Assembly: GCA_963718565.1 (NCBI GenBank)
Contig: OY970364.1
Coordinates: 1,056,001 to 1,120,000, forward strand
DNA: 64,000 nucleotides
From: an uncultured Verrucomicrobiae bacterium
GTDB taxonomy: Bacteria; Chlamydiota; Chlamydiia; Chlamydiales; Rhabdochlamydiaceae
Direction: 5' to 3'
Part shown: positions 3,810-21,708 of the stretch, piece by piece
Layout of the letters: the number at the start of each line of letters is the position of its first letter
Numbering within the stretch: the first letter of the stretch is position 1
Position numbers and translations under genes: made by a program
Notes under the pieces: model-generated
Seen by the model: only the letters and a program-made list of their open reading frames with translations
What the model was told of the DNA's origin: nothing
Database searches by the model: none

Positions 3810-4005
3810 GCAAGACAATGACTCCAGTTACTGGTTACGTTACGAACTTTTGACTGGATCGGCTTCTCTCAAAGCTTTAGAAGCCATCTCTTTATAAATG
3901 AACATCCCCAAAACCGATGCAGACGCCTTTGAAGTTTTAGCGGAAAGATTTCTCATAAAAAAGTATAATCATTGCCGTTACCTCTCTAGGAAAAAAGATT
4001 CTAAA

Positions 4006-5223
4006 ATGGCGCGAAAAAAGAAATCGACAAAGAAAAATAGTCCGCCCCCTCTTACAGCTGATAATCTTTTCAAAGCTGCCAGCAAAGGGTTAAACGCAGA
4101 TTTTACGAGAATTCGCGAAACAATGCCTCACCACGGCACTGCGGGGACAGAGACAGAAAACGTACTAAATAAATTTCTGAACGGTCATTTACCTAGACGG
4201 TTTGCAGCTGCAACAGGCCTGGCTATTGATACAGAAGATAATATCTCTCAACAATTCGATACCCTTATTTATGATGCAGAAAACAACCCCGTATATAGAG
4301 CTGGAGAAAATTTCGTAGCACAAATACTACCCTCTGACAGCATAGCAGCCGCGATCGAAACTAAATCTAACCTAAACAAAGGGGAACTCAAAGATGCTGC
4401 CGAAAAAATCGCCAGCATAAAAAAGCTAAAAAGAAGTCCTATCTCAAATCAGGATCAACAGGTAAATTTGTCTAATTTTATCTCGATAACCTGCTTGGGT
4501 GTTGTCTTTGCCTACACATCAACCACATCTCTCAAGACCTTGGCAAAAAATCTTAAGGAAATCAATCAAACAATCCCAAAAAGCCAAAGAATCGATCTCG
4601 TAGTAGTTTTAGACAAAGGAGTCATCGCATATGTTCCAAAAGTTCCCGGAGAAAACCACTCCCGGGGCTTAGTAATGATGCCCGAAGCCACAAACAATTT
4701 TAAAATTCCCGCTTGGTACATTCATCTTTGCATATTTGAAGAACCTGAACACGCTCTTCACTACTTTTTTATCCATTTGATGTCTTCTATTGCATTTTTT
4801 AGAAGAAGAATACCGTTACCATTTGACAGCCTATTGAAAGGAGCTTCGAATCGAATTCAATCCATTCAAGCCTATTGGTACAATTGCGCCCGGGATCTCG
4901 TAGAAATCCCGCCTGAGTATACACAGAAAAAGAATCCTCCCTTGCTTACTTTTAATGTATTCCTTAGAGGGGCTAGGAATGTAATAGGGCAATTTCATCA
5001 ACACAATTGGTCTGACGGCTACATATACCAAGTGATTCCTCCAACTCCAGCAGCACTCGATGTGCTCAGCTTCATTATCGGACCTAGCGGCCAGAAAAAT
5101 AATTCTTTAGTGCCTAATTCGGATGGACTGATCAGTCATACAACCCTATTAAAAGGACCGCCTCCAAGCTTAGATGACATCAAAAAATATTTATCTCAAA
5201 GTCCCTTTGAGATTAGAGAATAA
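4006..5223 (+). CDS. DUF6602-type (PD-(D/E)XK-like) putative nuclease with C-terminal extension
   Basis: Motifs H.G..G...E....FL..HLP, SQQFD.LIYD and AIETKS.L...EL.DA. Start taken at ATG 4006, downstream of TATAAT at 3964-3969; the ORF is open from 3898. Confidence 0.65.
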   Translation: MARKKKSTKKNSPPPLTADNLFKAASKGLNADFTRIRETMPHHGTAGTETENVLNKFLNGHLPRRFAAATGLAIDTEDNISQQFDTLIYDAENNPVYRAGENFVAQILPSDSIAAAIETKSNLNKGELKDAAEKIASIKKLKRSPISNQDQQVNLSNFISITCLGVVFAYTSTTSLKTLAKNLKEINQTIPKSQRIDLVVVLDKGVIAYVPKVPGENHSRGLVMMPEATNNFKIPAWYIHLCIFEEPEHALHYFFIHLMSSIAFFRRRIPLPFDSLLKGASNRIQSIQAYWYNCARDLVEIPPEYTQKKNPPLLTFNVFLRGARNVIGQFHQHNWSDGYIYQVIPPTPAALDVLSFIIGPSGQKNNSLVPNSDGLISHTTLLKGPPPSLDDIKKYLSQSPFEIRE

Positions 5224-6163
5224 CCTTGCTCTCCCTAAATCCAGCATGTTTTAGTGCGCCTATTTCGTCTTCGTGCGACAGGATATGCACACAAAACCTG
5301 TAAAAAGTGTCGTATAAAGAACCAGACCCTCTAAATACAACCGCTACCGCTGGTCCGATCCATTTGATCTCGTCGGCCTGAACGCCCGCTAAATCAAAGC
5401 CAGATACGGTTTCTGAAGGAATCTCTCCGACCCCTCTCCATACCGCACTGCCACTTGTTCCGCCCCATGATTTAGGTAAAATCGGCCCATCGACGCCCTC
5501 GCGATTGATTTCGCAATAAAATTCATCCACCCGTTTGACAAAATCACCATTGCAACTCCTGGCCGTTGCCTCAAAAAAGTCGGGTTTATCGGGTCCCAGA
5601 AAATGAAATCCGGCCTGTTCAAAATACAGGGTGTTTCCCTGTTTTGAAACCTTTTCACTGGGAGTTGCCTCAAAACCCCAAATCCAATTATTAACAGCAC
5701 CTTTTTTCTTTAGGCTGAGCCTCTGTGAAAAATGATTTGCTGCGGATTTGTCAAGGTCCCAGATTTGATAGCCTAAATCGAGAACGGCGGCGTCTGAGTC
5801 CAATTCAATAAATGAAATATCAAGACCTCTGATTCCCAAGTCAACTGGATAATGCGGCAAGGAAATAATAGATTTTAGTCTAAGCCCTTGTATCTTTTCT
5901 GATTTGTACCCAGGAACATAGACCCAATCTCGTTTTCTTAAATCGAACATCATTGCAACGTGATGGTTGGTAAGAATCCCTGGGCGATTCCCGATCCGGA
6001 CGAACGTACCGCTAGCGATGAATTCGGCGATACCTTTGTGCTCTTCTCCTAGATCCAATAGCCTAGTGCAATAGGGCTTTGCAAGCGCTTCGAAATTATC
6101 CAATAGTTTTGGATGATTTATTCTGACCATTCCCAACGTCATCGGCTTACGTTCTTTTTCCAT
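5213..6163 (-). CDS. trypsin-like serine protease
   Basis: Triad motifs in order: ASGTFV...ILTNHHV (His), DISFIEL (Asp), GGTSGSAVW (Ser). Confidence 0.7.
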   Translation of the reverse strand: MEKERKPMTLGMVRINHPKLLDNFEALAKPYCTRLLDLGEEHKGIAEFIASGTFVRIGNRPGILTNHHVAMMFDLRKRDWVYVPGYKSEKIQGLRLKSIISLPHYPVDLGIRGLDISFIELDSDAAVLDLGYQIWDLDKSAANHFSQRLSLKKKGAVNNWIWGFEATPSEKVSKQGNTLYFEQAGFHFLGPDKPDFFEATARSCNGDFVKRVDEFYCEINREGVDGPILPKSWGGTSGSAVWRGVGEIPSETVSGFDLAGVQADEIKWIGPAVAVVFRGSGSLYDTFYRFCVHILSHEDEIGALKHAGFRESKVIL

Positions 6164-6175
6164 AAGGGAGAGAGA

Positions 6176-19927: not shown

Positions 19928-20014
19928 AAAAATGGCTTTGTTTCGTAAAAAATGGCCTTTTTCTTGTACTGTTTTGTAATCTTTGGCAATCTTATAAGGT
20001 TTTTAGAGGATAGT

Positions 20015-20209
20015 ATGAAGAAAATCGATGAGTACATGCACATTACAGAGGCGGCTAAATTTCTCGGTGTAACTGCCAATACTCTGAGGAACTGGGAAAA
20101 AGAACAAAAAGTCAAAGTCTATCGCAATCCTCAAAATCGGTATCGGCTCTATAAAAAAGAGGATTTAGCAATTCTATTGGATAAAATCCATGAATCCTTA
20201 AGTAAATAA
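20015..20209 (+). CDS. MerR-type HTH excisionase-like protein
   Basis: ITEAAKFLGV..NTLRNWE......RNP.N.YRLY; TAATG coupling to the recombinase. Confidence 0.8.
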   Translation: MKKIDEYMHITEAAKFLGVTANTLRNWEKEQKVKVYRNPQNRYRLYKKEDLAILLDKIHESLSK

Positions 20210-21708
20210 TGATGAAAGCAATTCTATTCGCAAGAGTTTCAAGTAGAGATCAAGAAGAGGGGCAATCTATTCCCTCTCAAGTAAGAAGGCTCAGTGAATA
20301 TGCTCTTAAGAAAAATTTACAAGTCGTAGAAATTTTTCAGATCACCGAATCTTCTACCAAAGAGACTCGTAAGCAATTTGATAAGATTCTAGCCTGTATC
20401 AAACAGTCAAAGCAGCCGATCGCCTTAATCACCGACACTGTGGACCGCCTACAGAGGAGCTTTCGAGAAACCCCCATTCTAAATGAAATGAGACTTGCAG
20501 GAAAGCTTGAATTGCATTTTCTAAGAGAGGGTTTGATTGTCAATCTAAATGCCAATAGCTCACAGCTAATGCAATGGGATATTGGAGTCTTATTTGCATC
20601 GAGTTATGTTCGTCAACTAAGCGATAACGTTAAAAGGAGCAAAGAACAGAGCGTCCGAAACGGGGAATGGATCACAAGAGCACCATTTGGCTATAAAAAC
20701 GTCACACTCTCAACAGGCAAAAAGATCATTGAAGTTGACGCTGAAGAAGCTCCTTTTGTGGTTAAGATGTTTGAACTTTATGCAACTGGCCTCTATTCCT
20801 TTCAAACCATCTCGAACAAAATGACCGAATTGGGATTGAAAAATTCATTGGGAGATCCAATCGGGCCAAGCAGGGTCGAGTTAACCCTGAAAAACCCGTT
20901 TTATTTTGGTTTGATGAAAGTCAAAGGAGAGCTTTATCCTCACAAATACCCTCCTTTGATTTCAGAGTCCCTATTCGATCAAGTACAAGATGTAATGGCA
21001 GGACACAATAAAACCCCATTCAAGTATGCAGGCAACCCAATCCTATTTCGGGGATTAATTTCATGCGAGAACTGTGGTTGCACAGTTACAGGCGATATCA
21101 AAAAGAAAAAATACATCTATTACAGCTGCAACAACTCAAAAAAAATATGCCAAAAAACTTGGGTACGAGAGGAAAAGCTGCTAGAACCTCTTGTGGAATA
21201 TCTCGACCGAATTCAACTGCCAGATGCTTTAATTGAAGATATCATAAGCTACCTAAAGCAAGCCTACTCTCATGAACAGGAGTTCTTCAAGCATTCTCAA
21301 GAAATCCTTCGCAAGGAACTTGATACAATTCAGACAAGATTATCAAAATTAGTTGATATGCATTTGGATGGAGCCCTTGATTCTGATACATACAACGCAA
21401 AGCTGGAAGAATATAAAAAAAGACAGCGTGAGATTACTTCTGAAATGAAGGCTCATGTTAATGCAGATGAAACCTGTCTGATTACGGCGAAAACGGTGCT
21501 GGATCTAGCCAAACGGGCGAAGGAACTGTTCATGAGTTCGAAATTAGAGGAAAAACAGCAATTGTTAAATTTCGTCTTTTCGAACTTGAAATTAGATGGG
21601 AAAAGGCTGGCTGTAACACTGAGAGAACCGTTTTCAACGATCCTGGCAGTGTCACATCAACCAGTAGATCTCCGGATGCAAGATTCGAACTTGCGACCAA
21701 TGGATTAA
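20209..21708 (+). CDS. large serine recombinase (integrase); last 12 codons read antisense through tRNA-Asn
   Basis: FARVSS..Q catalytic Ser, DRLQR, recombinase domain (APFGY, NPFYFG), zinc ribbon C..CG...YYSC...C, coiled coil. Confidence 0.95.
   Translation: MMKAILFARVSSRDQEEGQSIPSQVRRLSEYALKKNLQVVEIFQITESSTKETRKQFDKILACIKQSKQPIALITDTVDRLQRSFRETPILNEMRLAGKLELHFLREGLIVNLNANSSQLMQWDIGVLFASSYVRQLSDNVKRSKEQSVRNGEWITRAPFGYKNVTLSTGKKIIEVDAEEAPFVVKMFELYATGLYSFQTISNKMTELGLKNSLGDPIGPSRVELTLKNPFYFGLMKVKGELYPHKYPPLISESLFDQVQDVMAGHNKTPFKYAGNPILFRGLISCENCGCTVTGDIKKKKYIYYSCNNSKKICQKTWVREEKLLEPLVEYLDRIQLPDALIEDIISYLKQAYSHEQEFFKHSQEILRKELDTIQTRLSKLVDMHLDGALDSDTYNAKLEEYKKRQREITSEMKAHVNADETCLITAKTVLDLAKRAKELFMSSKLEEKQQLLNFVFSNLKLDGKRLAVTLREPFSTILAVSHQPVDLRMQDSNLRPMD

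Follow-up and report, generated by a model that had tools for sequence, protein, structure and literature searches.

An island at a chlamydial tRNA-Asn gene and a large serine recombinase gene that spans its rebuilt attP

The last 12 residues of a 499-residue large serine recombinase (LSR) encoded in the genome of an environmental chlamydia are translated from the antisense strand of a tRNA-Asn gene. This arrangement raises the question of how the recombinase gene acquired such an end, and which end the protein would have when the DNA that carries it is not integrated. The locus lies in a stretch of 64,000 nucleotides from contig OY970364.1 (assembly GCA_963718565.1), which is called the window below. 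By its MetRS relatives, the host groups with environmental Chlamydiota, and the nearest named matches are Rhabdochlamydiaceae MAGs with 69-73% identity. The explanation that best accounts for all of the observations, and that we consider quite probable, is that the window holds an integrative element with its own LSR that was inserted at the 3′ tip of tRNA-Asn, that this layout is shared throughout a clade of recombinases, and that the zinc ribbon of the enzyme would read the tRNA T-loop or a mimic of it. The 17.8-kb island would then be a mobile defense island in an environmental chlamydia.

Serine integrases are favored for genome engineering because their sites are short and no host factors are needed. 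The overlap of attP with integrase codons also offers a clean natural case in which one stretch is under selection both as protein and as DNA site. Only four bases are repeated at the two ends of the island, and repeat-based island finders will therefore miss islands of this kind. Passages of the Islander paper on integration targets indicate that tRNA genes were for a long time regarded as sites for tyrosine integrases alone, and state that serine integrases were not known to target them (PMC4383910).

Junctions of the island and the rebuilt attP

Empty sites were sought by comparing the right flank of the island with 41 genomes, and the left flank, by BLAST, with the loci returned. In three same-genus loci (L008, L002, and L012), the left flank stops and the tRNA starts on the same four bases, giving an exact 4-bp overlap, and the joined sequence of a fourth (L009) is identical to these. 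In all four, a hairpin matching window positions 3781-3809 stands directly 3′ of tRNA-Asn and is joined to it via CTCC. A first-pass annotation, made from the window alone, implied that relatives without the island should show the left flank joined to tRNA-Asn, and this is the case in the four genomes. Because of these empty sites, the island ends can be placed exactly, at 3826-21669 give or take the core. A misassembly or a chance join was considered as well and is ruled out by the same empty sites. Among the other five loci of relatives that were inspected, one (L007) has a related LSR end at the site and four have unrelated sequence. The L007 locus (also L131; G002:C26), which is from the same genus, retains no more of a related LSR gene than its terminal ∼88 nt beside tRNA-Asn, and the rest has been replaced by unrelated genes. 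This remnant resembles a decayed attR, located at the same tRNA-Asn site.

Direct comparison of the two junctions gives an identity of 4 bp, with mismatches at offsets −1 and +4. The annotation had proposed two sites with no more than 4 bp in common, and the bases flanking CTCC, read directly, do differ. The crossover dinucleotide is likely the TC within this core, located at 3823-3824 in attL and at 21671-21672 in attR. When the junctions are joined to rebuild attP, AACCAGTA and its reverse complement TACTGGTT, both read directly from the sequence (Table 1), flank the central TC symmetrically at 4 bp on each side. This is the perfect 8-bp inverted repeat centered on TC that had been noted before. 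The rebuilt attP is placed within LSR codons ∼479-496.

The significance of this repeat depends on how the join is chosen. A symmetric perfect run of at least 8 was obtained with 70 of 200,000 random window-position pairs with 25-bp arms, or a chance of 3.5e-4. An examination of all 8,334 joins for which a 4-mer is common to 3000-4600 and 21000-22000 gave a run of at least 8 in two, including this join. Since the open scan gives one other such join, the inverted repeat alone would not pick the site. The single-test value applies because the empty sites of relatives fix the join point independently. With regard to the quasi-palindromic character of serine integrase att sites, the 8-bp symmetric repeat and the 4-bp shared core are seen, whereas the 5-bp shift described below is found in the right arms only.

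Joining 21672 to 3825 keeps the frame, and the resulting open reading frame (ORF) has its stop codon at 3930-3932. The rebuilt ORF confirms the proposed in-frame join, with 523 amino acids in the excised form and 499 in the integrated form. The crossover lies inside the integrase coding sequence and the C-terminus changes on integration, as in integrases whose genes span attP. The claim of a defined LSR/att set at the 3′ end of tRNA-Asn also stands: attP can be rebuilt, it lies inside the recombinase ORF, and integration swaps the last 36 LSR codons, such that the circle would encode 36 other residues in place of the 12 antisense-tRNA ones. The possibility that the tail at 3825-3932 is a separate small gene was ruled out, since the join places it in the LSR reading frame and its sequence is homologous to that found at the C-termini of unintegrated LSRs. 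The final 35 nt of the ORF in its circular form (3898-3932) would overlap the annotated start of the gene for a NucC-like endonuclease, which is read in another frame.

The protein has the domains expected of its class. A resolvase-type catalytic domain with the serine nucleophile is present (PF00239, E 1.8e-14, residues 4-154), and an A-R-V-S-S motif is invariant in LSR alignment A1. This domain is followed by PF07508 (Recombinase) and then by the PF13408 zinc ribbon, for which C286, C289, C307, and C314 are invariant in the alignment. A coiled coil within the zinc-ribbon domain was seen in the AlphaFold2 model of a free-form homologue, P0037 (67% identical to the window LSR), and not in the window protein; helices 338-385 and 391-414 of P0037 lie between zinc-ribbon strands. 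Directly upstream, the stop codon of a gene for an 85-residue helix–turn–helix (HTH) protein overlaps the LSR start, and the same position is occupied in 9 of the 12 related loci that hold this gene. The HTH protein is a candidate regulator or directionality factor.

Integration has also changed the surroundings of the tRNA gene. No strong terminator was found 3′ of tRNA-Asn in the present integrated arrangement. Because the original terminator has been shifted by 17.8 kb and no strong one is there now, read-through from tRNA-Asn may run antisense into the LSR gene.

The attP-spanning layout among relatives

A protein search returned 1,011 LSR relatives, and the C-termini of the best 120 fall into three classes. 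Those of the first class are antisense-tRNA peptides. In the second class, a stop codon occurs within a few codons of the junction, and the corresponding DNA loci show tRNA-Asp as the site. The third class, comprising 11 of the best 120 homologues, carries L-x-T-L-R-T-F-x-W, which is the tail predicted for the circle of the window. Thus the expectation that homologues should resemble the 3822-3932 peptide is borne out by the unintegrated ones, which carry this motif.

A survey at the DNA level covered 118 loci from genome and viral collections, with a gene counted as intact if its ORF had at least 440 codons. The ORF is intact in 93 of the 118; the other 25 either run off the contig (17) or are short or broken (8). 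In 56 of the 93 intact loci, the 3′ end of the ORF overlaps an antisense tRNA, with 14 isoacceptor kinds represented, and 79 metagenome loci give the same picture. The hosts include Chlamydiota, Dependentiae, Saccharibacteria, Alphaproteobacteria, and others. The attP-spanning layout is therefore a trait of the whole LSR clade and not peculiar to this island.

Members of the family at ∼50% identity occur in 4 of 18 other genomes of the same genus. In these (L213, L214, L215, and L216), the LSR 3′ ends abut tmRNA in three genomes and tRNA-Met in one, and two of the three tmRNA-abutting copies carry a stop. Since three LSRs of this genus abut tmRNA, the clade also targets tmRNA, like the Dehalococcoides recombinase DsiB. 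The genome from which the window was taken holds a second LSR fragment (L212; G000:C1:823247-823543) that matches residues 380-476 at 48% identity with one stop, and no tRNA was found within its 3.3-kb locus. Several relatives (L017, L132, P0019, P0025, L019, and P0007) are intact and have tails of neither the antisense-tRNA nor the R-T type (e.g., W-L-H-M-R-D-S-F-I-N). These may use secondary or non-tRNA sites.

The residue directly before the core also varies. Most family members have W, whose TGG codon is the reverse complement of an encoded CCA. The residue is D (GAT) at 21667-21669 in the window, where the host tRNA-Asn encodes no CCA, and N (AAT) in the close relatives L018, L055, and L133. 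The P arm seems to vary with the presence or absence of an encoded CCA in the host. To look for a second rebuilt att pair, the pattern core + 17 nt + [CA]GAAC was sought in a total of 310,573 bases upstream of 62 integrated loci (flanks of 4-10 kb, short of the far ends), and only the window attL and four chance matches were recovered.

The T-loop word and the C-terminal tail

For the LI integrase, Rutherford et al. (2013, PMC3783163) showed that a word of 9 bp at positions 16-24 of attP half-sites is read by the zinc-ribbon domain, and they proposed that the domain reads the same word at positions 11-19 of attB. The right arms of the window can be described in the same terms. The P′ word GTTACGAAC and the B′ word GATTCGAAC agree at seven of nine bases, and GATTCGAAC lies 5 bp nearer the core.

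Relatives show the same displacement. With a conserved PF codon as the reference point, 37 integrated loci have CGAAC at +58, and 7 free-form loci (5 distinct sequences) have [CA]GAAC at +63, the remaining loci being without the anchor or without the pentamer. In insertion-bearing loci, the pentamer is found at +103 in six and at +118 in two, and in the six of these eight for which a tRNA was called, the tRNA end is shifted by the same amount. If the W codon that is antisense to an encoded CCA is used as the anchor, CGAAC follows after 16 nt in 14 of 14 integrated forms, and [CA]GAAC follows after 21 nt in 10 of 12 free forms, the rebuilt site of the window included. In the classification of the surveyed loci, L102, L104, and L105 were counted as free forms, L088 and L057 were not.

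These positions are consistent with the following route. The LSR would have inserted the element at the very 3′ end of tRNA-Asn, with crossover at the core TC. In the B′ half-site, its zinc-ribbon domain would read the word of the universal T-loop (antisense GATTCGAAC), and in the P′ half-site it would read the mimic GTTACGAAC, which is 5 bp farther from the core, as the usual attB/attP spacing rule predicts. Because the mimic lies in coding sequence, it would fix the R-T of the tail. Reading of the T-loop would allow the clade to pass from one tRNA species to another and would account for its occurrence on many tRNAs and on tmRNA. The clade uses the tips of these genes as insertion sites and may read the invariant T-loop; if this is true, then natural landing pads would exist in almost any bacterium, and the clade would become a test case for target change.

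An alternative origin for the P′ word is that attP formerly contained part of a tRNA, in the manner of tyrosine-integrase islands, and that the word is a vestige of this rather than a recognition element. The P′ arm does resemble the tRNA arm slightly past the pentamer, with TT..GAC after CGAAC in both. However, the word is exactly 5 bp out of tRNA register in 10 of 12 free forms, in genes that are 28-50% identical to the window LSR, whereas a vestige would drift, and codon choice is skewed to keep the word. We consider a vestigial origin improbable.

The codon choice was assessed at the Arg of the R-T pair in the tails of 11 free-form genes. The codon is CGA in nine and AGA in two, against a background of 45 CGA among 353 Arg codons in the same genes (13%), and a count of at least 9 of 11 was reached in 0 of 1,000,000 simulations, although these genes are related and the P value thus overstates their independence. 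Their identity to the window LSR is, even so, no more than 28-50%. Because of this skew toward CGA, the R-T core is taken to be held as DNA. As far as codon usage can tell, what is conserved in this core is a T-loop-like word carried by the P′ arm.

Other tail positions behave differently. In 11 of 11 near homologues, tail position 12 is an invariant W and position 10 is F/L/V, whereas position 11 is variable. The two conserved positions are located 31-33 bp away from the core, where the tRNA arm offers nothing equivalent. The F-x-W motif and the hydrophobic spacing point to some constraint at the protein level too. The first-pass annotation had suggested that the tail is conserved as the native C-terminus of the enzyme, and this can be retained for F-x-W and the hydrophobic spacing, but not for the R-T core, which codon usage assigns to the DNA. 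In the AlphaFold2 model of P0037, the tail forms helices at 487-495 and 498-508 (block pLDDT 81 and 72; 50 for the last ten residues), although the tail is covered by only 11 alignment rows and the model is silent on function.

Several further observations weigh against our interpretation. The free form L201 has AGAAA instead of the word, and in L034 the word is 18 nt after its W, though still at +63 from PF. No shared word in the 5-bp register was seen by eye in the left half-sites (P and B arms), so that the T-loop reading is supported by the right arms only. Past ∼17 residues, the tails of free forms diverge both in sequence and in length, and integrated relatives tolerate tails of 2 to >60 residues. 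No excision or integration product was observed. Finally, an IS3-family insertion sequence between the primase-helicase gene and the regulators may have left this copy immobile.

The IS3 insertion would fit an island that is a fixed remnant, having integrated once by this route and being now immobile, with no isoform switching in this genome. Such elements do decay in relatives, as indicated by the ∼88-nt LSR end in G002 and by the two same-genus LSR copies with stops, and the genome of the window itself holds the second LSR fragment. By contrast, the LSR ORF of the island is intact with all three domains, as is the upstream HTH gene; both att junctions are undamaged, with the perfect 8-bp repeat, and the tail is open for all 35 codons. 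We consider a fixed remnant less likely than not.

The divergent free-form tails and the varied integrated tails fit a dispensable tail. The tail swap might be a neutral by-product: attP happens to coincide with the end of the gene, what is selected is the DNA as a recombination site, both isoforms would behave alike, and the peptide beyond the zinc ribbon is idle. The constraint on the R-T core as nucleotides (CGA in 9 of 11) agrees with this view, as do the divergence of free-form tails after ∼17 residues and the abundance of integrated forms that are intact with very different junk tails (56 of 93). McMurdie et al., in the passage on the corresponding part of dsiB, thought the antisense portion unlikely to be functional (PMC3146451). 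A purely neutral tail is harder to reconcile with the invariant W and the F/L/V kept in 11 of 11 at a distance from the core where the tRNA arm has no counterpart, with the predicted tail helices (pLDDT 72-81), or with the fact that the window and L034 keep R-T-F-D-W through synonymous differences. We give this alternative slightly less than an even chance.

A more speculative extension of the preferred explanation, insertion by an LSR that reads the T-loop, concerns the enzyme itself. Integration would remove a short conserved C-terminal helix and might alter enzyme activity, by analogy with Mx8 IntP/IntX. The first-pass annotation had suggested that such an isoform switch could control directionality or stability. 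In its fullest form, the T-loop would serve as the zinc-ribbon word and the element would carry its own mimic in its last codons, so that the same bases would be recognized by the enzyme, encode part of it, and act as a sensor of its state that tunes it for the integrated form. We regard this combination as rather unlikely at present. If true, every tRNA and tmRNA gene would be a potential landing pad for this widespread clade.

Contents of the island and comparison with known systems

The features of the island and its surroundings are collected in Table 1. Related elements such as L055 share a backbone order of two unknown genes, primase-helicase, small HTH, 159-aa protein, 85-aa HTH, and LSR, with the primase-helicase kept upstream of the LSR in 9 related loci. 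No family match for the 446-aa and 105-aa backbone proteins was obtained in Pfam, PADLOC, and PHROGs scans. The uninterrupted backbone of L055 aligns to the window up to 17567 and again from 19280, which shows that the IS3 element interrupts the backbone; no inverted repeat marking the IS3 ends was found. Outside the island, ∼1 kb to its left, is a DDE transposase gene (608 aa, PF01609) at window positions 1047-2873.

No public sequencing run contained more than 0.28 of the sampled window words. Logan contigs of four runs over 3000-22500 gave short pieces only, chiefly on the IS3 element and the tRNA, and no joints; they bear on neither a circle nor an empty site. For the IS3 region (17650-19250), contigs of several soil and wetland runs match at 99-100%, far above the rest of the island. 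Because the insertion sequence matches so much better than the island in those runs, it circulates more widely than the island.

Table 1. Positions of features in the window
Feature	Position	Strand	Remarks
Rho-independent terminator of tRNA-Asn, displaced	3781..3809	-	12-pair stem then T run; now 17.8 kb from the tRNA
attL core CTCC	3822-3825	.	Sole stretch common to both junctions; empty sites of relatives join here
Orphaned last 35 LSR codons and stop	3825..3932	+	In-frame continuation; rejoins the ORF only in the excised circle
Integrated island, ∼17.8 kb	3826..21669	.	Absent at this site in same-genus L008, L002, L012, L009
P′ arm of attP	3826..3847	+	Contains TACTGGTT (3829-3836) and GTTACGAAC
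P′ T-loop-like word GTTACGAAC	3839-3847	+	Half-site positions 16-24 from TC center
NucC-like PD-(D/E)xK endonuclease (DUF6602), cargo	3898..5223	+	Pfam PF20247 E 5.5e-25; PADLOC NucC effector E 4e-33
Cas4-like nuclease fused to RNase H-like domain, cargo	6176..7678	-	Pfam PF13482, PF01930; PADLOC Cas4 models
Type I restriction-modification system, cargo	7635..14048	-	Pfam and PADLOC
HsdR	7635-10604	-	Part of type I system
HsdS	10591-11919	-	Part of type I system
HsdM	11910-14048	-	Part of type I system
Backbone genes, 446 aa and 105 aa	14050..15913	-	tblastn matches in 9 and 5 related loci
Primase-helicase (zinc finger, Toprim, AAA_25), backbone	16019..17644	+	Pfam; PHROGs primase/helicase
IS3-family insertion sequence	17988..19149	-	orfA 18862-19149, orfB 17988-18875; Pfam rve and HTH_Tnp_1
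Small HTH protein, backbone	19126-19374	+	Same order in 6 related loci
159-aa protein, backbone	19448-19927	+	Same order in 9 related loci
MerR/excisionase-type HTH protein, 85 aa	19952..20209	+	Pfam MerR and HTH_17; PHROGs excisionase families
LSR, integrated form, 499 aa	20209..21708	+	Resolvase, Recombinase, Zn_ribbon_recom domains
P arm of attP	21646..21669	+	Within LSR codons; contains AACCAGTA (21659-21666)
tRNA-Asn(GTT), integration target	21669-21742	-	ARAGORN; CCA not encoded
attR core CTCC	21670-21673	.	Last four tRNA-Asn bases, including the discriminator, on the opposite strand
B′ arm word GATTCGAAC, antisense T-loop/T-stem	21682..21690	+	Half-site positions 11-19 from TC center

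No description of tRNA-targeting LSRs of this build was found in the full-text literature, with subscription journals outside coverage. The main text of the LSR discovery paper does not contain "tRNA" (PMC10083194). Nevertheless, individual aspects of the arrangement can be compared with known systems, as these are described in the passages cited.

The Listeria A118/LI serine integrase is similar in that its att site is short, with quasi-symmetric arms on either side of a central dinucleotide, and in the placement of its zinc-ribbon word at 16-24 in attP and 11-19 in attB (PMC3783163). Unlike the window LSR, LI does not target tRNA genes, and the ORF of the enzyme does not contain attP. In the window, the shifted word is present in the right arms only. 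The tDNA islands treated in the Islander paper likewise reside at the 3′ end of a tRNA gene and leave the tRNA intact. They differ in having a tyrosine integrase, a tRNA fragment in attP, and a detectable repeat, whereas the window has a serine recombinase and only CTCC repeated (PMC4383910).

Also similar in layout is dsiB, the serine recombinase gene of Dehalococcoides ssrA islands, whose 3′ end always overlaps attL (McMurdie et al. 2011, PMC3146451). As in the window, the 3′ end of the LSR gene lies over the att junction, its stop codon is outside the island, and the 3′ end of a tRNA-like gene is antisense to it. McMurdie et al. proposed that dsiB may be fully functional only on the circle (PMC3146451). 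The systems differ in that DsiB targets tmRNA, inserts at the T-loop, has a 20-bp direct repeat, and is accompanied by a second, small serine recombinase, DsiA (PMC3146451), whereas the window has a tRNA-Asn target, a crossover at the discriminator/acceptor end, 4 bp shared, and no second recombinase.

The Islander paper also notes that the integrases of Mx8 and SSV extend across attP (PMC4383910). For Mx8 IntP/IntX, attP is in the integrase gene and integration gives a new 3′ end, as in the window, and the changed integrase keeps an altered activity (Tojo 1996 and Magrini 1999, via PMC4383910 and PMC6070905). The Mx8 enzyme is a tyrosine recombinase, whereas the window enzyme has serine-recombinase domains. 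Precedents for an integrase gene that spans attP are therefore dsiB among serine recombinases and Mx8 IntP among tyrosine recombinases. What is new here is that part of the conservation of the tail lies in the DNA, as a T-loop-like word shifted by 5 bp in accordance with the zinc-ribbon spacing rule.

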